Source of the DNA: Clostridia bacterium
GTDB taxonomy: Bacteria > Bacillota > Clostridia > Christensenellales > UBA1242
DNA: 64,000 bases
NCBI GenBank assembly: GCA_028709705.1
Contig: JAQVWL010000002.1
Span: forward strand, 68,184 to 132,183
Direction: 5' to 3'
The notes beneath the pieces were generated by a model that worked only from the letters and a program-made list of their open reading frames with translations, did not search any database and was not told where the DNA came from. Shown one piece after another: positions 3,406 to 44,896 of the stretch. A program made the position numbers and the translations under genes. The first letter of the stretch is position 1. Each line of letters begins with the position of its first letter.

Positions 3406-3879
3406 ATGCCAAGAAGAAATAGAGCGGTCAAAAAAGATGTTTTGGCTGACCCAATTCACAATAGCAAACTTTTGACCAAACTTGTTAATCAAGTTATGTT
3501 AGATGGAAAAAAAGGTATTGCACAAGGAATTGTTTATGGCGCTTTTGATTTGATAAAAGAAAAAACAGGAAATGAACCACTTGCTGTGTTTACACAAGCA
3601 CTTGAAAATGTTAAACCCGTTTTGGAAACAAAAGGTCGTAGAGTGGGCGGAGCAACATATCAAGTTCCTATGGAAATAAGACCTGAAAGAAGACAAACAT
3701 TAGGTATTCGTTGGATAGTCAATTTTGCCCGAAAAAGAAATGGCGAAAGAACTATGCAAGAAAAACTTGCTGGCGAGTTGCTTGATGCTTTTAACAACAC
3801 CGGTGCATCAGTAAAGAAAAAAGAAGAAATGCACAGAATGGCGGAAGCGAATAAAGCATTCGCGCACTTCCGCTGGTAA
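3406..3879 (+). CDS. rpsG: 30S ribosomal protein S7
   Basis: [20 protein letters not shown]...KAFAHFRW* is full-length S7, preceded by AAGGAG. Confidence 0.97.
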
Positions 3880-4050
3880 AATTTTCAATTTTTGTGGCGG
3901 TTTTTTGCGTTTCTGCCCACCTTACCTTGACAGGTATGTACCAAAAAGTACACTACCTTAGCCAAGTCAAAGCGGGGCGAGCCTTGAAACCCGCTCACAA
4001 AAATTGAAAATTTAAAGTACGAGAAATAAGTTTTTTATTTAAGCATGTGT
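3871..4050 (+). repeat. Copy 1 of a two-copy structured repeat: an 18-bp perfect terminal inverted repeat closes a ~136-nt imperfect hairpin (3878-4013), followed by a conserved AGTACG tail
   Basis: AAATTTTCAATTTTTGTG (3879-3896) and its exact reverse complement CACAAAAATTGAAAATTT (3996-4013). Apical stem GGTA.GTAC/GTAC..TACC (3933-3957). The same arms and layout recur at 44589-44719. Confidence 0.75.
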
Positions 4051-4057
4051 TTAATTT

Positions 4058-4340
4058 TTACGAAAGTTGGAAATTGCGAAGCCAGCCCACCCAATGCAGA
4101 AGCGGGCTTGATTTTCCAAGACAAAGTCGAAGGAAAATGGGGGATTTGAGTGCCGATAAGCAATGATATTTTGGAGGCGGTGCAGTTTGATTTATTAGCA
4201 AGGGGCAAACGGGGACGCTAGCAACTGACACGGGAGCGACTAGCGTAGGGTCACGTTGGCTCTCAGCCCCTTGACATGAAAGCAAAAGGCGAAAAACTTG
4301 TATTATAAAACCCAACAAAAAACAAATAAAAATCATAATA
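4058..4340. ncRNA. Candidate structured RNA or unclassified G+C-rich island in the rpsG-fusA spacer
   Basis: Hand count gives ~52% G+C over 4081-4260 (63% over 4201-4260), against ~30% in the flanks. Local stems include ACGCTAG(4216-4222)/CTAGCGT(4241-4247) and CAAGGGGC(4199-4206)/GCCCCTTG(4265-4272). There is no credible ORF, and I could not match it to any known RNA family by eye. Confidence 0.3.
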
Positions 4341-4375
4341 AAATACCGCTTATAAAGGCGGGAAAGGAGAAATAA

Positions 4376-14201: not shown

Positions 14202-14503
14202 ATAAAATATGATCTTTACTTATTTTGTTTTTTAATTCTACCAATTTTTTTGGTTTTTAATAGAAAGATATTCAAATATATGTGACATTTTAATAGCACC
14301 TATTTTACCTAATAACAAACCGACAGCAATAGTGTTTAATCCTTTGTAGTATCCAACTATAACTCCGCTAGTATTGTTTTTTGTCAATAGTGTTTTGTCG
14401 TAAGCAAAAAACACAAAATTTTACCATATTGATAATTATTTTGGTTATAATAATATAACTAAAATAATTATTAATAAAAAGCATTGCTCTATTGTGTAAA
14501 AAC

Positions 14504-14520
14504 TTATCCACATTTCCACA
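14504..14520 (+). promoter_or_regulatory. DnaA-box dyad TTATCCACA+TTTCCACA
   Basis: A perfect consensus TTATCCACA (14504-14512) directly abuts TTTCCACA. The same TCCACATTTCCAC core recurs at 31137-31149 and, reversed, at 31001-31013. Confidence 0.6.
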
Positions 14521-14814
14521 AAAATAACTATATTTTTGTGTATAACTAAAATTTTAAGATTTGAAAAAATAAATAAGAAAATTCTAACTTCATTAAAGCA
14601 ATCAAACGCATTTAATTTTAATTGTGGTTTTTTTTATTTTTATAATTTCAATTTGGGAAGTATAACGCATAAACCAAAATTTAATTTTTGTTTATTTATT
14701 TTTTTTAATTATTATAATTATTAGAAAATTAAATTTAATAAAAAATTTTTATTTTTATTTTTTATATTAACTAATTAATTTTTTATAATTTAAAAAAATG
14801 TTTGTTTACAAAAT

Positions 14815-14830
14815 TGTTTCACGTGAAACA
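14815..14830. promoter_or_regulatory. parS site 1 (TGTTTCACGTGAAACA)
   Basis: A perfect 16-bp palindrome matching the Firmicutes parS consensus TGTTNCACGTGAAACA. Confidence 0.9.
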
Positions 14831-14870
14831 CATAATGCAATACATTGCTTTATAAATAAAGAAGCTAAAT

Positions 14871-14886
14871 TGTTTCACGTGGAACA
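14871..14886. promoter_or_regulatory. parS site 2 (TGTTTCACGTGGAACA)
   Basis: One mismatch from the palindrome, and the same family as sites 1 and 3. Confidence 0.85.
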
Positions 14887-14908
14887 ATTTAAAGAGTTTG
14901 TGTAAAAA

Positions 14909-14924
14909 TGTTTCACGTGAAACA
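14909..14924. promoter_or_regulatory. parS site 3 (TGTTTCACGTGAAACA)
   Basis: A perfect 16-bp parS palindrome, 45 nt downstream of the parB stop. Confidence 0.9.
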
Positions 14925-14948
14925 AAAAATACAAGCCACCGCTTGTAT
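14924..14948 (-). terminator. Intrinsic terminator after parB
   Basis: ATACAAGC(14929-14936)/GCTTGTAT(14941-14948). On the minus strand the hairpin is followed by a T-run (complement of 14924-14928). Confidence 0.65.
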
Positions 14949-14968: not shown

Positions 14969-15928
14969 TTAACTGCGTTTTGCTTTGTTGTTAAAGTTTT
15001 TTAAGTCTTCAAGGGTTAGTTTTTTGCTTTTTAATATTTCTATTAATTCAAAAATCCTATCTAAATCATCTCTTGAAAAATATTCAATATTAATCTTTCC
15101 TTTATTATCATTACCAGTAATCGACACTTTGGTTGCAAAAACTCTTTGTAATTCTTCTGTAAAATCAATTAACTCATTGCTTTGTATAATATCATCTTTT
15201 AATTTGTTTTCTTGCTTATTTGTTGCATTTTTAACTAATTTTTCCAAATCTCTTACACTTAATTTGTTTTCTACTGCAATTTTTGCAATTTTTATTTGCA
15301 ATTTTTCATCATTTATAGTTATTAAAGCCCTTGCATGCCCTGCACTTAAATAATTATTTTCAACCATTAATAATATTTCTGATGGCAAATTTAATAATCT
15401 AATTAGATTTGCAATATTTGGTCTACTTTTTCCAATTCTGTCAGCAACAACTTCTTGGGTAAAGTTATATTCTTCCATCAATTGCTTTATCGCCCTTGCT
15501 GCTTCAATTGGGTTTAAATCTTCTCTTTGCAAGTTTTCAATCAAGGCAACTTCTTTAATTTGCCTTTCTGTGTAATCTTTAATTATGCAAGGGATTTGAT
15601 TTAAACCTGCAAGTTTAGACGCTCTAAAACGCCTTTCCCCCGCTATTATTAAAAACTTTCCGTTTTCAATTTTGTTAACAATAATTGGTTGTATAACCCC
15701 ATGTTGTTTTATACTTTCTGACAAATCCGCAAGCGCACTTTCATCAAATATTTTTCTTGGTTGATTAGGGTTCACCATCAACAAATCAAGACTTATTTGA
15801 CTTATTCCTTCATCATTTTTTCGGTTTTGTTGTAATTCATTATTGCTGTCTATATCGTTTTCATCGTCATAAATAGACATTAGTGCAGACAAACCTTTAC
15901 CTAAACCTTTTTTATTTATCATCGCCAT
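14969..15928 (-). CDS. parB: Chromosome partitioning protein ParB/Spo0J
   Basis: KGLGKGLSALM, GERRFRASKLAG and HTH-region motifs. The start is probably the ATG at 15928 or 15922. The start at 15943 in the ORF track is a TTG extension. Confidence 0.93.
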   Translation of the reverse strand: MAMINKKGLGKGLSALMSIYDDENDIDSNNELQQNRKNDEGISQISLDLLMVNPNQPRKIFDESALADLSESIKQHGVIQPIIVNKIENGKFLIIAGERRFRASKLAGLNQIPCIIKDYTERQIKEVALIENLQREDLNPIEAARAIKQLMEEYNFTQEVVADRIGKSRPNIANLIRLLNLPSEILLMVENNYLSAGHARALITINDEKLQIKIAKIAVENKLSVRDLEKLVKNATNKQENKLKDDIIQSNELIDFTEELQRVFATKVSITGNDNKGKINIEYFSRDDLDRIFELIEILKSKKLTLEDLKNFNNKAKRS

Positions 15929-16739
15929 TTCCCCTAAGTTCAACTTTGGTATGTTTGGTTATTTTATTATAACTATCTTTGTTTCTTTCAAGCAGTTCTT
16001 CTGCCAATTTAAGATAAGCGTCTGCCCCTTTTGAGTTTGAATCATATGTAATAATTGGTTCACCATGGCTTGGCGCTTCAGCTAACCTAATATTTCTAGG
16101 TATATAAGTGTCAAAAACTTTTTTACCAAAAAATTTAACTATTTCACCACTTACTTCCGCAATCAAGTTTGAACGATTGTCTTTCATGGTTAAAACCACA
16201 CCCTCAACGTTAAGGGAAGGATTTAGATGTTGCTTTATTAATCTAACAGTATTCATAAGTTGACTTAATCCTTCAAGTGCAAAAAATTCACACTGTATTG
16301 GAATGACAATTGAATGCGATGCGGTTAAAGCATTAACCGTTAACAAACCCAAAGATGGAGGGCAATCAATCATAATATAATCATAATCATCTAAAATTCG
16401 ACCTAAAATGTTTTTAATTATTTTTTCCCTTGAACTCATTTGGACCAAATCAATTTCCGCACCAGCCAAATCAACTGTTGCAGGAATAATATCCAAATTT
16501 TTTATGTGAGTTTTTAAAATTGACTCTTTTACCGAACACTCGCCATCTATTACATTATATATTGTTTTAACTTTGGAACTTTTTTCTATCCCAACCCCAC
16601 TTGTAGCGTTCCCTTGCGGATCCATATCCAAAATCAAAACTCTTTTGCCCATTATGGCAACATACGCTGAAAGGTTTATGCAGGTGGTAGTCTTCCCAAC
16701 TCCGCCTTTTTGATTTGCAAATGCTATAATTTTTCCCAT
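15912..16739 (-). CDS. parA: Chromosome partitioning ATPase ParA/Soj
   Basis: MGKIIAFANQKGGVGKTTT is a deviant Walker A motif. GGAG lies upstream of the ATG at 16739. Confidence 0.93.
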   Translation of the reverse strand: MGKIIAFANQKGGVGKTTTCINLSAYVAIMGKRVLILDMDPQGNATSGVGIEKSSKVKTIYNVIDGECSVKESILKTHIKNLDIIPATVDLAGAEIDLVQMSSREKIIKNILGRILDDYDYIMIDCPPSLGLLTVNALTASHSIVIPIQCEFFALEGLSQLMNTVRLIKQHLNPSLNVEGVVLTMKDNRSNLIAEVSGEIVKFFGKKVFDTYIPRNIRLAEAPSHGEPIITYDSNSKGADAYLKLAEELLERNKDSYNKITKHTKVELRGNGDDK

Positions 16740-29790: not shown

Positions 29791-30903
29791 TTAACCTTTC
29801 ATTAACCTAACAGGCAAAATCAAATATAGATATCTGTCTTGATCCCCATCAAATGGTGTAATAACACAAGGGTTTTGAGCAGAATTGAATTTTATGTTTA
29901 TAAATTCTTCTTGATTTACTTTCAATGCTTCCATAAAATATCTTGCATTAAAAGCAATCACAAACTCTTTTCCTTTAAACACAATGCTTAAATTTTCTTT
30001 TATATTTCCAATTTCAGAGCGTGAAGTAATACACAAGTTTTGGTCTCTTATATCAAATTGCACCAAGTTATTTTGTCCAATTTTGGAAAGCAAAGAAGCC
30101 CTTTCAAGTGCATCTTCTAATTGTTTTTTATTAATTGTTATCTTTGTTTCAAATTCACTGCTTATTATTTGTTTATAATTTATAAATTCGCCTTCAAGTA
30201 AACGAGTTGTGATAATACAATCTTCTAAATCAACCATCAAAAAATTTCTTTGAAAGTATATGTTTATAATTTTGTCGCTATCGTCTAATAGTTTTGCAAT
30301 TTCGTTCAAACTTCTTGCAGGAACAACAACAGAAGCAGATAAATTACTTTCTTTTATTTTTTGTGAATTAAGAGCAAGTCTAAACCCATCAAGAGCAACA
30401 GTTTTGATTTTTCCGTTTTCAATTTCAAACAAACAACCTTTAAGAATTGGTCTTGTGTCATCAATAGCAACGGAAAAAGCAGTTTTATTTATAAGGTTTT
30501 TAAAGTTTTTTTGTTCAATACCAAAAAAATCATTGCTTTCAAGTTTTTTAAAACAAGGGAATTCATAAACAGGGAAGCATTGAATAATAGTTTCACTATC
30601 AGTATATTTGATTTTTAAAGAATTGTTATCATTTAATTTTAACTCAATTCTTTCATTGGTAAGTTTTTTAATTAATTCTCCAAAAAATCTTCCTGGAACA
30701 ACTGTTTCTCCTTCAATTTTAACTTCTGCTTTTATCTTTTTTTCAATAGATAATTCCAAATCTGTGGCACTTAAAGTCACAATACCATCTTCCGCAACAA
30801 TTTTTATTCCTTCTAGAATAGGGTTTGTTGTTTTTGTACTTATAGCCCTTGAAACTGTTATAACAGCATCACATAAATCTAACCCATCACATATTAATTG
30901 CAT
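29791..30903 (-). CDS. dnaN: DNA polymerase III beta subunit (sliding clamp)
   Basis: 370 aa, MQLICDGLDLCDAVITVSRAIS..., three-domain length, AAGGAG upstream. Confidence 0.93.
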   Translation of the reverse strand: MQLICDGLDLCDAVITVSRAISTKTTNPILEGIKIVAEDGIVTLSATDLELSIEKKIKAEVKIEGETVVPGRFFGELIKKLTNERIELKLNDNNSLKIKYTDSETIIQCFPVYEFPCFKKLESNDFFGIEQKNFKNLINKTAFSVAIDDTRPILKGCLFEIENGKIKTVALDGFRLALNSQKIKESNLSASVVVPARSLNEIAKLLDDSDKIINIYFQRNFLMVDLEDCIITTRLLEGEFINYKQIISSEFETKITINKKQLEDALERASLLSKIGQNNLVQFDIRDQNLCITSRSEIGNIKENLSIVFKGKEFVIAFNARYFMEALKVNQEEFINIKFNSAQNPCVITPFDGDQDRYLYLILPVRLMKG

Positions 30904-31151
30904 TTTTTCTCCTTAAATTTTTTTAAATTTTTTGTTATACACGCGCGCTTATTATATAATATATTAAATATTATTTTAGTATTAGTATTAGTAGTGTTTG
31001 TGGAAATGTGGACAAGTTTTTACCCAAACACAATATATTGACTTGTTTTTAACAAATAACTACCATATACCGAAAAAAACTATCATTTTATTAAGTTTGT
31101 TTTTGGTGGATAAGTTTGTTAACAAAATTGCCAAATATCCACATTTCCACT
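30904..31151. other. Candidate oriC unwinding module in the dnaA-dnaN spacer
   Basis: DnaA boxes at 30999-31015 (TGTGGAAA+TGTGGACAA), 31105-31113 (GGTGGATAA) and 31135-31150 (ATATCCACA+TTTCCAC). A TAG-TAT-TAG-TAT-TAG-TAG trinucleotide array at 30977-30994 adjoins a box pair. A pure A/T tract runs 30951-30976. Confidence 0.6.
30977..30994. repeat. DnaA-trio-like trinucleotide array (TAGTAT TAGTAT TAGTAG)
   Basis: Six tandem TAG/TAT triplets lie 4 nt from the box pair at 30999-31015. Confidence 0.5.
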
Positions 31152-32504
31152 CTAACTAACATTTATAAGCATTTTTAACTGGGAAATTATATTTTTAATT
31201 TCAGGATCATTTTTAACTGATTCAGTTATTTTATCCCTTGCGTGAATAATTGTTGTGTGGTCTCTCCCTCCAAAGTATTTTCCAATACTTATCAAAGGAA
31301 CATCTAAAATTTCATTTATCAAATATATTGCTATCATTCTTGGTTCAACAATGTCTTTACTTTTCTTTTTTCCAACAATGTCTGTTTTTGATATGTTAAA
31401 ATGTGTGCAAACTACATCTGTTATTGAATCAAGAGTCAAATTTTCTTTCACAGTATTCAAATTTTCTTTAAACGCTTCTTTTGCTTCATCAATACCTGCA
31501 GATTTTTTTCCAAGCAAAGAAGCAAAGAAATGCACTTTTGAAAGTAAACCTTCCATCTCTCTAATATTTGTGTTGATTTTGTCTGCAATAAATTCAATTA
31601 CTTCATCATCAATAAAATATCTTTCCTGTTGTGCTTTTTTTCTTAAAATAGCAATTCTTGTTTCAAAGTCTGGCGGTTGAATATCTTGAATTAACCCACA
31701 AGCAAATCTTGATTCCAACCTTTGAGCAAGTGTCGCAATTTCTTTTGGAGGGCGATCGGAAGATAAAATAATTTGTTTGTTGTTTTGATATAAGTCGTTA
31801 AATGTGTGGAAGAACTCTTCTTGTGTGGAATCTTTTTTTGAAAGGAATTGAATATCATCAACCATAAGTATATCAAGATTTCTATATTTTTCTCTAAACT
31901 CAATTTTACTTTCTTCTTTTTTTGAAAGCATAGACTCAATATAATCGTTTGTAAATTTTTCACAAGTAACATATTTGATTTTTAGGTTTGGATAAAACTG
32001 AATTATATAATTTCCAATAGCGTGCAATAAGTGAGTTTTTCCTAAACCAACACCACCATAAATAAACAATGGATTAAATTTTTTTCCGGGATTTTCAGCA
32101 ACAGCTCTTGCACCCGCATAAACGAATTGATTGCTTTTTCCAACCACAAAATTTTCAAAAGTGTATTTCAAATTAAACATATTTTTATCTTCTTCTGTTT
32201 TTGTAAAAATTTGTTCATTTGCTGGATTATGTATTTTTATATATTGTTCTTTTTCAACAAGGTCAATAATTTCAACTTCTGTGTTTTCGTCAAAAACTTG
32301 AAACACAGTTTCTTTTATTTGTTTTAAGTGATTTTTTATTAGTTGATTTTTTGCAGTTGTTGTTGAAGCAACCAAAACCAAAACTTTATTTTCTCTATAT
32401 TCCAAAACTTCAATTGTTTTTATCCAAAGTTCAAAAGACACAGAACTAACTTGAACTTCTAACTTTGATAAAACTTTATTCCAAAGTGATTTTATTTCTT
32501 CCAT
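31152..32504 (-). CDS. dnaA: Chromosomal replication initiator DnaA
   Basis: 450 aa with AAA+ Walker A GGVGLGKTHLLHAIGN and C-terminal DNA-binding helix GGRDHTTIIHARDKI. Confidence 0.97.
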   Translation of the reverse strand: MEEIKSLWNKVLSKLEVQVSSVSFELWIKTIEVLEYRENKVLVLVASTTTAKNQLIKNHLKQIKETVFQVFDENTEVEIIDLVEKEQYIKIHNPANEQIFTKTEEDKNMFNLKYTFENFVVGKSNQFVYAGARAVAENPGKKFNPLFIYGGVGLGKTHLLHAIGNYIIQFYPNLKIKYVTCEKFTNDYIESMLSKKEESKIEFREKYRNLDILMVDDIQFLSKKDSTQEEFFHTFNDLYQNNKQIILSSDRPPKEIATLAQRLESRFACGLIQDIQPPDFETRIAILRKKAQQERYFIDDEVIEFIADKINTNIREMEGLLSKVHFFASLLGKKSAGIDEAKEAFKENLNTVKENLTLDSITDVVCTHFNISKTDIVGKKKSKDIVEPRMIAIYLINEILDVPLISIGKYFGGRDHTTIIHARDKITESVKNDPEIKNIISQLKMLINVS

Positions 32505-36132: not shown

Positions 36133-36200
36133 GTAAAACTCCTAAAAAGATAATAACATAAGTTAAAAAAAAAGACAAATAAAATTGTTGACAAAGATTT

Positions 36201-36250
36201 ATATATATAATAGTATATATTATAGTAATATAGTATATATATATAATATA
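36201..36250. repeat. Iterated TA-rich motif (ATAGTATATAT x2 with a 20-bp period, TATAGTA x3) in a divergent promoter region
   Basis: ATAGTATATAT occurs at 36210-36220 and 36230-36240. TTGACA lies at 36188-36193 upstream. Confidence 0.5.
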
Positions 36251-36311
36251 GAAAATTTCATCACAAAAAGTAAAATCTTATTATTAGTTAGTAAAATAAA
36301 AGGAAAAAAGT

Positions 36312-37410
36312 ATGATTTTAGATAACCAAAAACAAAAAATGCAAGAAGTTGTAAAAAATTTTGAATTTATAAAGGATTGTCTTTGACCCGCAAAAACTTA
36401 AACAAATTGTTCAAGAATGTCAAAAAAAACAAGAAGAACCTGACTTTTTTTTAGATAAAAAAACAGTAAAAAAAGTCGGCGTAGACTTAAAAATAGCCGA
36501 GGATAAAATCGCAATCATAAAAAAAATACAGTTATTGATTGAAGATAGTCAAACAATTTTAGAAATACTTGAAAATAGCGAAGATTTGGCACTTTTTGAA
36601 GAATTAAATTTTAATATAAACGAATTGGAAAACAGGTTACAAAATTTAAAAATTGAAACTTTGCTTAATGGAAAATACGACCAAAACAATGCAATTTTGA
36701 CTTTGCACGCAGGTGCCGGTGGTACCGAAGCACAAGATTGGGTTGAAATGCTTTTTAGAATGTACAAAATGTATGCTGAAAAACAAAATTACAAAATTGA
36801 CATTTTTGACATAGTTGATGGAGATGAGGCAGGAATAAAAAGTATAACATTTTTGGTTGAAGGCAAATACGCTTATGGTTATTTAAAAGCAGAAAAAGGT
36901 GTTCATCGTTTGGTAAGAATATCTCCTTTTGATGCAAATTTAAGAAGACACACAAGTTTCGCTTCTCTTGAAGTTATGCCAGAAATAGACGAACTTCCAG
37001 AAATTGAAATTGATGCAGAAGACTTGAAAATTGATACTTATCGAGCAAGCGGTGCAGGCGGACAACATATCAACAAAACTGATAGTGCAATTAGGATAAC
37101 GCATTTGCCAAGCGGAATTGTTGTTGCTTGCCAAAATCAACGCTCGCAAATCCAAAACAAAGAAACAGCAATGAAAATGCTTTATAGCAAACTAGCCGAA
37201 TTGAAAGAGCAAGAAGAAAAGCAAAATCTTGACAAAATAAGAGGCGAAATAAAAAAAATTGAATGGGGAAATCAAATAAGGTCTTATGTTTTTCACCCTT
37301 ACACAATGGTAAAAGACCATCGTACAAACTTTGAAACAAGTGATGTGCAAAGTGTAATGAATGGCAATATTCAACCTTTTATAATTGATTTTTGCTCAAA
37401 AAATGTGTAA
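36312..37410 (+). CDS. prfB: Peptide chain release factor 2, requiring a programmed +1 frameshift at 36384
   Basis: Frame 0 runs ATG36312...AAG GAT TGT CTT TGA(36384). The +1 frame is open from GAC36385 into ORF-track entry 36535..37410 (SGAGGQHINKTDSAIR, GGQ motif). Confidence 0.93.
36372..36387 (+). promoter_or_regulatory. RF2 autoregulatory +1 frameshift site (CTT TGA C) with a weak upstream SD-like AAGGA
   Basis: The sequence AAGGATTGTCTTTGAC is read directly, with the in-frame TGA at 36384-36386. Confidence 0.9.
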
Positions 37411-42661: not shown

Positions 42662-44590
42662 ATGTCAAACAAAATTAGCAATTTTTTTGGTTTAATCTTT
42701 ATGTCAATAATAGCGGGAATAATTATTTTTGCTATTATTTTTTCTTATGTGTTTCCGACAGCACCCGTACCGATTGAAGATAATAGTGCAGAATACAATA
42801 TTGGTGAATACACAACCAGCATAACAGTCAACCAAAACAATACTCTATCAGTGAATGAAACAATAAAAGTAAATTTTTTAGTTGCTAGTCATGGCATTTT
42901 TAGGGCATTGCCAACCATAAACGAAGTAAAAAATGTTGATGGCGAAGGAAATGTTATAAGTTCAAAAAAATTTAGAGTTAACTACACAAACATAACGGTC
43001 GACAAAACATTTGATACATACACCGAAAATGACTTCTTATTTATTCAAATAGGTAGTCAATATTCATACGCCCAAGCAGAAGAAACATATGTTTTGTCAT
43101 ACATTGTGGAACTAGACAGCAGATACGCCGACTATAACCAATTTTATTACAATATTTTAGGCAATTTATGGGATACGACAATATCAGATTTTACAGCAAT
43201 AATAACCTTTCCAACACCAGTTGATGCAAGCGCTCCCCTAACCGAAATTTATGTAGGCGAATATGGAAGTACAACACAAATTGATGGAGACTGGACTGAA
43301 AACAACACAGTTTTAACAATTACCCATTCAATTTTGGCGGTTGGCGAAGGAATAACGGTTCTTGTAAACTTGCAAGAGGGCTTTTTTACCGCACCTTATC
43401 CACATCTACTTGACATTTTTATGTTAGTTTTAATTGTTATTTTTGCAATAATTGCGATTGTTTTATACAAAAAAACAAGCAACAAAAAAATGCTTGTTCC
43501 TGTGGTGCAATTTAGTGTAAACAAAAAATTTACATCAGCAGATGTTGGATATATTATTGACAAAACTGTTGATAACAAAGACATTGCGTCGCTCATAATT
43601 TTATGGGCTCAAAAAGGCTATTTGGAAATTATTGAAGAAAAGAAAAAAACATTTTTAAGAAAATTGAAAAATGCTGACAACGATATGAAGCAATATGAAA
43701 AAACCTTGTTTGAAGCGATTTTCGGCAACCAAGACAAAAAAATTGATATATCAAAAATAGGTGAAAAGATTTTATCAACAATCCAAACAACAAAAACCTC
43801 AATAAAAATTGAAAATGAAAAAGCATTTAGTACAAAAGCGGAACTAGCACGAAGTGCGATAATAATAATTATGGGGATTTTGTTTGGTGTGGTCTTATTT
43901 GCAATAAATTATCAAAATGTAAACACTTTTTTCACATACTTATCTGTATTTGTAGCGATTGCTATTGTGGTTTCATTATTTGTTTGGTCCAAAAAGCAAG
44001 ATATGAAAGATATTATAAACGCCAAAAACAAATTTTATAGCAAAGTTTCCACCCTTATTCTACTTGCTGGCATATTTGTTTTTGTATTTTTCTCTTACGA
44101 CAAAATTTGCGACATTTTTTTCACAAGTTTTATTGTTTTTGCGGAACTAATATTTACTATTTATTTATTATCAAAATTTAACATAAGAACAAATGATGGA
44201 ATTGCTGATATGGGCGATATTGTTGGTTTAAAAAATTTTATAGAAGTAACCGAAAAAGATCGCCTAGAACTTTTGGCAAAAGAAAACCCAACAATGTTTT
44301 TTGACATTATGCCTTATGCCTATGTGCTTGGCGTATATGAAGAATGGTGCAAAAAATTTGAAAATATAGTAATAGAAACACCAACTTGGTATGTGGGAAA
44401 CAATCTAACATTCAACTATTTGCTTATGCTAAATATTATGCACAGTACAACAAACTCATTTTTGCAAGCAGTAAACACAGCACAATTTGCAAAAATGGCA
44501 AGCACAGTAACTTCAAACAAAACTTTTGGCGGTTCTGGCGGAGGTTTTAGTGGCGGGGGTTTTGGTGGTGGCGGTGGCGGTCGCTGGTAA
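42662..44590 (+). CDS. DUF2207-like membrane protein with a glycine-rich C-terminal tail
   Basis: 642 aa with an N-terminal TM helix, an extracellular domain, multiple TM helices and the tail GGSGGGFSGGGFGGGGGGRW*. It is adjacent to lemA, which is the usual pairing. Confidence 0.7.
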   Translation: MSNKISNFFGLIFMSIIAGIIIFAIIFSYVFPTAPVPIEDNSAEYNIGEYTTSITVNQNNTLSVNETIKVNFLVASHGIFRALPTINEVKNVDGEGNVISSKKFRVNYTNITVDKTFDTYTENDFLFIQIGSQYSYAQAEETYVLSYIVELDSRYADYNQFYYNILGNLWDTTISDFTAIITFPTPVDASAPLTEIYVGEYGSTTQIDGDWTENNTVLTITHSILAVGEGITVLVNLQEGFFTAPYPHLLDIFMLVLIVIFAIIAIVLYKKTSNKKMLVPVVQFSVNKKFTSADVGYIIDKTVDNKDIASLIILWAQKGYLEIIEEKKKTFLRKLKNADNDMKQYEKTLFEAIFGNQDKKIDISKIGEKILSTIQTTKTSIKIENEKAFSTKAELARSAIIIIMGILFGVVLFAINYQNVNTFFTYLSVFVAIAIVVSLFVWSKKQDMKDIINAKNKFYSKVSTLILLAGIFVFVFFSYDKICDIFFTSFIVFAELIFTIYLLSKFNIRTNDGIADMGDIVGLKNFIEVTEKDRLELLAKENPTMFFDIMPYAYVLGVYEEWCKKFENIVIETPTWYVGNNLTFNYLLMLNIMHSTTNSFLQAVNTAQFAKMASTVTSNKTFGGSGGGFSGGGFGGGGGGRW

Positions 44591-44750
44591 ATTTTCAATT
44601 TTTGTGGAAATCTTTGAACTTTCTGGCAAAATTTTAAGACAGGGCAGTACCGGAAGTACAGCCCGTGCCTAAAAATTTGTGCCGAGCGTCCAAACCTTTC
44701 TCACAAAAATTGAAAATTTGCAGTACGCAAGATAAATTTTCTACTTAATT
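44582..44750 (+). repeat. Copy 2 of the structured repeat (hairpin 44589-44719 plus AGTACG tail)
   Basis: It has the identical 18-nt arms (44589-44606 and 44702-44719). The apical stem is GGGC.GTAC-CGGAA-GTAC.GCCC (44642-44664). As in copy 1, it is preceded by CGCTGGTAA. Confidence 0.75.
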
Positions 44751-44845
44751 AAATTATTATTCTGCGTTAACTGCCCGCTTTGCTTTGCCCAACAAATTTA
44801 ATAAAACCATAATTATTCATTCTTTATTCTTCATTAACCATTAAT

Positions 44846-44869
44846 AAAACGGCAGTTTAGCCGTTTTTT
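44846..44869. terminator. Bidirectional terminator
   Basis: AAACGGC(44847-44853)/GCCGTTT(44860-44866) with a T-run, between convergent genes. Confidence 0.7.
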
Positions 44870-44896
44870 ATATTTGTTTTGCTTTTATTTTCCTTT

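Follow-up and report, generated by a model that had tools for sequence, protein, structure and literature searches.

The 64-kb stretch of DNA analysed here (henceforth the window), which comes from an A/T-rich uncultured Clostridia bacterium and covers core chromosome around the replication origin, carries two long hairpins set directly against stop codons, one downstream of rpsG and the other downstream of a gene encoding a 642-residue DUF2207 protein. The hairpins look like copies of a repeat family rather than a new structured RNA gene: tandem arrays, truncated units, mosaics of arms and apices, a neighbouring second inverted-repeat element and apparent homogenisation of two loci indicate that they behave like repeat DNA. 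We consider it moderately probable that they belong to a new, lineage-restricted family of modular palindromic DNA repeats of the BOX/ERIC/Correia kind, located in transcribed 3' regions, where the hairpin probably has a side effect on mRNA stability or processing. The repeat is non-coding and its carriers belong to an uncultured clade of Clostridia. It is not a demonstrated miniature inverted-repeat transposable element (MITE), as no target-site duplication was seen and no partner transposase was found in the window.

Hairpin units at the rpsG and DUF2207 stop codons

An initial annotation of the window had placed the two copies at 3878-4013 and 44589-44719 and described them as starting exactly at a stop codon and as closed by identical arms of 18 nucleotides (nt) in perfect inverted repeat. 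The arms were borne out. Within the window, the 18-mer AAATTTTCAATTTTTGTG is found without mismatch at exactly four places, 3879-3896 (+), 3996-4013 (-), 44589-44606 (+) and 44702-44719 (-), which make up two inverted pairs (3879-3896/3996-4013 and 44589-44606/44702-44719), and any further match carries three mismatches, the level of chance. These matches move the start of copy 1 by one base, to 3879-4013 (135 nt), and leave copy 2 at 44589-44719 (131 nt). Abutment of the stop codon also held, its exact form being an overlap: the last A of the rpsG TAA (3877-3879, +) is the first base of the copy 1 arm, and the last two A's of the DUF2207 TAA (44588-44590, +) lie within the arm of copy 2, so that 1 nt and 2 nt are shared, respectively. 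The codons CGC TGG before the rpsG stop encode its native RW C-terminus, and the DUF2207 protein natively ends in GGGGGRW. Folded as RNA, copy 1 has a minimum free energy of -53.3 kcal/mol (z -7.9) and copy 2 one of -55.5 kcal/mol (z -7.0), with 0 of 200 shuffles folding as well.

The repeated unit is ~170 nt long and keeps the order arm, sub-basal stem, apex, sub-basal stem, arm and tail in all units, here and in relatives. The outer arms form an 18-bp inverted repeat of type A (AAATTTTCAATTTTTGTG) or, in relatives, type B (AAATTTTTCCGTTTTAAC). Within them, the sub-basal stem bears a conserved non-palindromic motif pair, (C)TGCGTTTCTG on the 5' side and CGAGCCTTG on the 3' side, which gives the unit its polarity and always encloses the apex. 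The apical hairpin measures 55-62 nt in every unit and comes in at least three types (X, Y and Z), and the 3' tail of every unit consists of NN-AGTAC(R), an A-rich stretch and TTTATTTAAG, so that AGTAC lies 2 nt past every unit; it recurs at the apex of the Y and Z modules. Units stand directly against the TAA of genes ending in ...TGG TAA, always in the sense orientation, singly or in tandem arrays.

In copy 1, all on the + strand, the type A 5' arm (3879-3896, identical in the related contigs L004, L005 and L006 described below) is followed by the 5' side of the sub-basal stem, GCGGTTTTTTGCGTTTCTG (3897-3915), which contains the asymmetric motif TGCGTTTCTG, by a 62-nt apical hairpin of type Y with a GTAC-loop-GTAC apex (3916-3977), by the 3' side of the stem, CGAGCCTTGAAACCCGCT (3978-3995), with the motif CGAGCCTTG, and by the outer 3' arm CACAAAAATTGAAAATTT (3996-4013). 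Its tail (4014-4049; NN-AGTACG, A-rich stretch, TTTTTTATTTAAG) is part of the repeated unit and is kept after every unit in relatives. Copy 2, on the same strand, has a type A 5' arm (44589-44606), the stem sides GAAATCTTTGAACTTTCTG (44607-44625) and CGAGCGTCCAAACCTTTCT (44683-44701), a 57-nt apex of type Z between them (44626-44682), the 3' arm at 44702-44719 and the tail GC-AGTACG-CAAGATAAATTTTCTACTTAA... at 44720-44755; its stem shows paired changes relative to copy 1 (GCGG:CCGC to GAAA:TTTC). The interior layout described earlier (TTTCTG, GACAGG, GTAC-loop-GTAC, CTCAC) was present in both copies, as were the two paired differences reported between them (GGTA:TACC vs GGGC:GCCC and TTGAC:GTCAA vs TTTTA(A)G:C(T)AAAA) and the common AGTACG with its A/T-rich tail. 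Over the 49 nt spanning the 3' arm and tail the copies are 84% identical; their interiors are marginally alignable (62 matches vs 56.3 +/- 2.8 for shuffles).

A third copy was not found in the window by nhmmer --max or by a covariance model run without filters, in which the two copies score 135 and 108 bits and the next best match 20 bits. The earlier count of two thus stands for the window, and related genomes hold further units. The statement that no known family can be assigned agrees with Rfam 15, which returned 0 matches at gathering scores over the whole window and, by E-value around copy 1, a best match of 19 bits (E = 0.43). Short open reading frames (ORFs) of 37-48 residues inside the element are not kept between the copies, and no gene was called across any hairpin in the four contigs that have gene calls (L005, L006, L007 and L016).

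The pattern search proposed with the initial annotation, together with the closest rpsG and DUF2207 homologues, brought out units in related metagenome contigs. Among 185,579 species-representative genomes the pattern scan gave a single match, L001, and in metagenomes it gave three, of which L004 alone is a true homologue; L002 and L003 were judged to be chance. L001 (3470-3645 of the Rhabdochlamydiaceae metagenome-assembled genome DATAHB010000121.1) is a near-perfect palindrome of ~175 nt that fills the gap between convergent genes and covers both of their stop codons. It shares with the hairpin unit only the 12-mer TCAATTTTTGTG, scores ~49 bits on both strands alike, lacks the asymmetric motif and was dismissed as a chance match; L002, in G+C-rich DNA, holds a palindrome of the same sort, ~270 nt long and imperfect. 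Viral contigs yielded no match to the hairpin pattern and 15 single-arm matches judged to be chance, and blastn against plasmid and phage records yielded none. Together with L004, the contigs holding the closest rpsG and DUF2207 homologues (L005, L006, L007, L016 and L041) place the unit at the orthologous rpsG site in four contigs (L004, L005, L006 and L007) and at the DUF2207 site in L016. Units at the same loci were assembled independently in JGI and Logan datasets, and the 18-bp terminal inverted repeats are perfect in L004 and L005 as in both window copies.

These loci differ in how many units they hold and in what the units are made of. Downstream of rpsG, the window has one unit, L004 three and L007 two, and L041, with 92% S7 identity, has a hairpin of only ~30 nt that begins with AAATTTT and has AGCAC behind it; no unit is present in relatives at 85-89% rpsG identity. 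The three L004 units lie in tandem in the same orientation and score 130.7, 55.6 and 28.4 bits in the model: unit 1 is full (arms A, apex Y), and the other two are truncated, unit 2 being of type B without its 5' arm and unit 3 resembling window copy 2, to whose apex it is similar in the 3' half. In L007 a full type B unit (AAATTTTTCCGTTTTAAC / GTTAAAACGAAAAAATTT) is followed by a type A unit of which only the 3' half is present, and beyond it lies a second inverted-repeat element in complete form. In L005 and L006 (96% S7 identity) the arms and sub-basal stem are the same, with 2 differences in 73 nt, around a different 58-nt apex. L016 carries the DUF2207 ortholog (71% identity) and comes from the same sample as L005; the contig stops 33 nt into the unit, whose arm matches the 5' arm of copy 2 at 17 of 18 positions and whose sub-basal stem is the L005 variant GGCGGTTTTCTGCGTTT, not the GGAAATCTTTGAACTTT of window copy 2. 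The variant shared by L005 and L016 suggests homogenisation within a genome. No clean pair of an empty and a filled site was found among the relatives examined; L042, which shares ATTTAAGCAT, was considered as an empty site and set aside because the alignment was unconvincing.

Apices were compared between units as well. Apex Y is common to window copy 1 and L004 (similarity z 6.2), apex X to the type B unit of L007 and the L004 remnant (z 7.1), with the L005 apex related to both (z 2.7-3.4), and apex Z belongs to window copy 2; between types, z is ~0. Arms and apices thus occur in the combinations A+Y (window copy 1, L004), A+X (L005), A+Z (window copy 2) and B+X (L007, L004 remnant), and modules have therefore been exchanged between units. 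Conserved outer modules that pair with each other around exchangeable inner modules, as in a BOX-like repeat, are what we find in the hairpin unit.

The 9 nt before the hairpin, CGCTGGTAA, are identical at the two window loci because both proteins natively end in RW, as do 106 of 120 S7 homologues and many DUF2207 homologues; this left flank is native coding sequence, found also in relatives without the element. Downstream, the rpsG-fusA spacer measures 496 nt in the window; among relatives with 85-89% rpsG identity it spans 80-100 nt, or else the following gene begins 13 nt past the stop. As had been noted from the lack of a U-tract, neither hairpin resembles a classical terminator: a U-tract was seen behind neither, and no terminator-like site was called at either of them, nor anywhere on the + strand between 3300 and 4500, which spans the rpsG-fusA spacer. 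The LemA-DUF2207 operon has a canonical intrinsic terminator of its own at 44846-44875 (+), 127 nt past copy 2. Copy 2 therefore lies within the 3' untranslated region (UTR) and is not itself the terminator, and for these two reasons both copies are very probably transcribed together with the upstream gene.

Several narrower identities were tried and rejected. An outward promoter in the 3' arm (TTGAAA + 17 nt + TAAGTT/TAAATT) does not keep its -10 hexamer in L004, L005 and L007; a readthrough or recoding peptide is contradicted by a post-stop frame that differs between the copies and closes after 8-16 codons; an S7 autoregulatory site does not fit a copy 2 that follows an unrelated gene; and a K-turn was absent on inspection.

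Palindromic DNA or a selected RNA fold

The paired differences between the copies had been taken as covariation that preserves a fold, and hence as evidence of selection on structure rather than of a recently copied MITE. The fold itself is real and is kept with different sequence. When five hairpins were compared, 92% of cells paired and 20 of 42 pairs had changed on both sides; 0 of 500 shuffles reached this, and slid controls were 32-57% paired. What did not hold is the step from there to selection on an RNA fold. Of the non-Watson-Crick positions, 12 were G·U when read on the + strand, 11 were G·U when read on the - strand and 39 were neither, which is the random 2:2:8 ratio; 24 of 25 changed cells went from one Watson-Crick pair to another, with one G·U wobble and no pair varying on one side only; and in each of the five hairpins the antisense RNA has a better fold than the sense RNA, by 3.5-11 kcal/mol. 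The absence of G·U enrichment and the near-confinement of changes to Watson-Crick pairs point to a palindrome at the DNA level, not to selection at the RNA level. Moreover, the apex of window copy 1 is no more like its ortholog in L005 than shuffles are (z = 0), and the L005 apex instead matches apices that lie within type B arms elsewhere, so that much of the interior difference is module replacement and not compensatory point change. Palindromes of unrelated origin will necessarily seem to covary once their centres are aligned, and a large part of the apparent covariation arises because non-homologous palindromic modules are compared. The module swaps, the lack of G·U enrichment, the better antisense fold and the behaviour as repeat DNA all speak against selection on an RNA fold. 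The other half of the argument was sustained: units at orthologous sites in genomes that differ at 31-43% of rpsG four-fold positions, with no consistent target-site duplication, are not a recently copied MITE.

A family of palindromic DNA repeats would account for these features as follows. The palindrome would be a property of the DNA, its halves being kept complementary by exchange and gene conversion between units and by hairpin-templated repair, and selection at the RNA level would not be needed. A trans factor may keep the arm sequence constant, one candidate being a transposase or recombinase whose gene lies elsewhere in the genome. In mRNA each copy would form a hairpin of ~50 bp, opened at its base by the terminating ribosome, copy 1 in the rpsG-fusA intercistronic spacer and copy 2 in the DUF2207 3' UTR ahead of the real terminator. 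The likeliest side effect would be a barrier to 3'-exonucleases or a processing site for a double-strand RNase, making the mRNA segments on its two sides independent of each other in stability, as reported for ERIC, Correia and REP.

Several observations weigh against this family reading, among them the constancy of the arms. At four-fold sites of rpsG the window differs from L004 by 31% and from L005 by 43%, yet all 36 arm bases are unchanged relative to L004 (P ~1.6e-6) and to L005 (P ~1.5e-9). A passively decaying, selfish insertion would not keep its arms in this way, so that function or continuing conversion is required: either a sequence-specific factor reads the arms, or constrained copies continually overwrite others, and the match of L005 and L016 at two loci of one sample supports overwriting. 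That these two contigs belong to one genome is, however, read from their shared sample alone. Target-site duplications are inconsistent as well. TAA/TAA flanks occur at window copy 1 only, the flanks of copy 2, L004 and L005 do not match on each side, and a TAA at the end of the tail is indistinguishable from chance in A/T-rich DNA. No transposase, recombinase or integrase was found among the 50 scanned window ORFs of at least 90 residues. Only two loci are known, with two copies in 64 kb, and it is unexplained that both of these independent loci abut the same ...CGCTGGTAA. Two features speak for RNA: the ortholog pair of window and L004, whose interiors are 80% identical, shows genuine paired substitutions in the sub-basal stem (GCGG:CCGC to GCGAG:CTCGC), and the conserved motif contains two U·G pairs that do not vary and exist on the + strand only.

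Such features would be expected of a host-selected cis-acting RNA element, which we regard as unlikely. On this account the stop-codon hairpin is a conserved signal for mRNA processing or stability, which might be cut by an RNase III-type enzyme or hold up 3'-exonucleases and would be melted at its base by the terminating ribosome. The stoichiometry of rpsL-rpsG versus fusA-tuf and the half-life of the DUF2207 mRNA would depend on it, and the arms would be conserved through a sequence-specific protein that reads the duplex. Arms invariant across genomes at 31-43% neutral divergence, a length held at 130-135 nt despite differing apices, and a unit that is always sense-oriented, always at a stop codon and in transcribed DNA fit it, as do the paired sub-basal changes and the strand-specific U·G pairs just mentioned. 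The wobble and antisense results do not, and apices are swapped between units instead of having drifted in place. In addition, the truncated units and tandem arrangements that L004 and L007 have at one locus show single units to be dispensable, L041 at 92% rpsG identity makes do with its ~30-nt hairpin and relatives at 85-89% with none, and rpsG and a DUF2207 membrane protein have no obvious regulatory need in common.

We give less credence still to a substrate for recombination or transposition as folded single-stranded DNA, in the manner of integron attC sites or REPIN/IS200-IS605 elements. Here a tyrosine or HUH enzyme would recognise the folded strand, with TGGTAA as the target or cleavage context and AGTAC as a distal cleavage motif, and an interior conserved in structure but not sequence, the missing target-site duplication, the fixed polarity and the arrays in one orientation would all be explained. 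The Watson-Crick-only changes are those that DNA hairpins would show; the identical left flank at two unrelated genes, the AGTAC repeated 2 nt past each unit and at the Y and Z apices, the head-to-tail arrays and the attC-like position right behind an ORF are further points in its favour, although the common flank is native RW-stop coding sequence that element-free relatives also have. The attC core sites RYYYAAC/GTTRRRY and the REP GTAG/CGTC tag are absent, no integrase, RAYT or Y1/HUH gene was seen among the scanned ORFs of the window, the arms are strongly conserved in sequence and not in structure alone, and the hairpins stand in housekeeping operons rather than in cassette arrays. A chance similarity or an artefact of assembly is refuted as far as these analyses allow: the arms are A/T-rich in an A/T-rich genome, and long palindromes with the same 12-mer do arise by chance in huge collections (L001, L002), but an 18-mer with four exact matches in the window, where chance produces matches only at three mismatches, fold z-scores of -7 to -8 and independent assembly at the same loci are not explained in this way.

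Frozen arms, a constant apex length, fixed polarity and an identical ...CGCTGGTAA junction at two unrelated genes are unexplained features of the units. We also entertain, as an unlikely but novel possibility, in which the unit would not be passive repeat DNA, a stop-codon-anchored hairpin cassette with a dedicated trans partner, which might be a single-stranded DNA recombinase or a double-stranded RNA-binding or processing factor. The recombinase would be guided by sequence, target ...TGGTAA and cut at AGTAC, and would represent a new attC/REPIN-like mobility system in Clostridia; the RNA factor would read the invariant 18-bp arms sequence-specifically as double-stranded RNA. Either partner would explain why the arms are frozen across species and the apex is freely exchanged.

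Returning to the palindromic repeat family, if this assignment is right, it brings to light an undescribed family of small repeats in an A/T-rich lineage of uncultured Clostridia that is found in metagenomes, with two related contigs coming from one JGI metagenome, 3300014203. It also exposes a trap for motif discovery, since palindromic DNA repeats give strong apparent covariation and very good fold z-scores without selection at the RNA level, and a test of wobble pairs and strand asymmetry combined with orthologous loci can separate the two. The frozen arms, the cassette-like exchange of apices and the identical TGGTAA junction hint at a trans-acting factor, and the same features suggest an effect on expression of the str operon, whose spacer has grown from ~90 to 496 nt.

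The rpsG-fusA spacer and other features of the window

The rpsG-fusA spacer is a mosaic. Next to the tail of copy 1 lies the left arm only of a second element, unrelated to the hairpin unit (TTTAATTTTTACGAAAGTTGG...GCGAAGCCAGCCCACCC...AAAATGGGGGATTTG; 4050-4148, +). Its long imperfect inverted arms (TTTAATTTTTRCGAAAGTTGG...GCGAAGCCAGCCCACCC...AAAATGGGGGATTTG) are both present in the complete, ~370-nt element at 802-1169 of L007, and the L005 contig stops within it; in the rpsG-fusA spacer it always follows the hairpin unit. The window stretch 4186-4286 is comparatively G+C-rich, has no counterpart in L004 or L007 and folds into a hairpin closed by CAAGGGGC/GCCCCTTG (-38.5 kcal/mol, z -2.75; no Rfam match). 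A small hairpin directly ahead of the fusA Shine-Dalgarno sequence, CCGC-TTATAAAG-GCGG (4346-4369), is kept in L004 and L007 while the remaining spacer is not, and may be a 5' stabiliser or translational element for fusA. In the related Clostridia lineage P0009, a different small-repeat family has colonised the str operon: the 316-nt rpsL-rpsG spacer of L017 (2040-2250) is full of short G+C-rich hairpins (GCGCCGGCTGGAAGCCGGCGC, TTCCGCGCGTTTTAAAACGCGCGGAA and GCGCAGTTAAAACTGCGC).

The genes of the window include rpsL-rpsG-fusA-tuf, dnaB, parAB, rsmG, mnmGE, jag-yidC-rnpA, dnaN, dnaA and recF, together with prfB, RNase J, LemA-DUF2207, murB, whiA, glmS and dnaE. Despite several ribosomal and translation operons among them, the empty Rfam result at gathering scores extends to tRNAs, ribosomal-protein leaders and riboswitches. 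Three parS-like palindromes, TGTTTCACGTGAAACA and variants (14811-14944), lie just upstream of parB (14969-15943, - strand) and account for the best non-self match of the hairpin covariance model (20 bits). A DnaA-box-containing pair with 87% complementarity, TTATCCACA at 14492-14530 and TGTGGACAAG at 30989-31027, suggests a bipartite oriC in the window; the former falls within the 797 nt that separate the phosphoketolase gene from parB, and the latter lies between dnaN (ending at 30903) and dnaA (starting at 31152). Finally, a 402-nt gap (36133-36534) precedes an RF2 (prfB) ORF of 291 residues from which the N-terminal portion of the PCRF domain is missing; the likely cause is the usual, here putative, +1 programmed frameshift site.

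Comparison with known repeat families

Identity with an intrinsic (Rho-independent) terminator was rejected on the grounds given above. Integron attC sites are hairpins of 57-141 nt right behind an ORF, with conserved ends, a variable self-complementary centre and a fixed polarity. The hairpin unit is likewise ORF-adjacent, conserved at its ends, variable but self-complementary at its centre and fixed in polarity. It differs in that the R''/R' core (RYYYAAC / GTTRRRY) is absent, the arms reading AAATTTTCAA... and ...TTGAAAATTT, and in that the hairpins stand in the str and LemA-DUF2207 operons near oriC, with no integrase or cassette array.

REP/BIME and REPIN-RAYT systems resemble the unit as palindromic extragenic repeats that lie mostly downstream of genes, form arrays and mosaics, build dimers that fold into one long hairpin with variable spacers, and persist vertically for long periods (PMC3733652). 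A REP is defined by a GTAG (or CGTC) tag at one end of a palindromic unit of 20-40 bp, and the survey lists no Firmicutes among the phyla with GTAG or CGTC repeats (PMC3733652). The hairpin unit has no such tag, its tail reading AGTAC(G/A), its arms are not self-palindromic units of 20-40 bp, and no RAYT gene was seen in the window.

Closer in form are ERIC/IRU and Correia/NEMIS of Enterobacteria and Neisseria, imperfect palindromes of ~105-170 bp in transcribed intergenic DNA whose 5' end folds onto the 3' end in mRNA and for which changes in mRNA stability are reported (PMC2229807). Hairpins of ERIC and NEMIS are co-transcribed and alter mRNA decay, NEMIS through RNase III, and for an ERIC near a stop codon the proposed mechanism is ribosome-dependent exposure of an RNase E site (PMC2229807). 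These families belong to another phylum and have no sequence homology with the hairpin unit, whose arms are invariant across species and whose apex is swapped. In Correia elements the target-site duplication is TA and the terminal repeats are 26 bp long, whereas no duplication was seen here, and ERIC occurs in both orientations.

The last comparison is with BOX of Streptococcus (boxA-boxB(n)-boxC; boxE/boxF in S. suis). No sequence similarity to BOX is evident, homology to boxA, boxB and boxC not having been searched for; the inner module of the hairpin unit is a single 55-62-nt hairpin and not a tandem boxB array, and the unit has a conserved 3' tail, abuts stop codons and takes one orientation only. 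Like the hairpin unit, BOX is an intergenic repeat of Firmicutes, ~100-200 nt long, that is clustered with other repeat families and has a predicted effect on co-transcribed genes (PMC3049150). Its conserved outer modules likewise pair around an exchangeable or variable centre, and different flanks are found with the same inner module (PMC3049150). Indeed, the conserved flanking modules of BOX surround a variable boxB, and in S. suis two different flank pairs enclose the same boxB (PMC3049150), much as arms of types A and B enclose apex X in the units described here.

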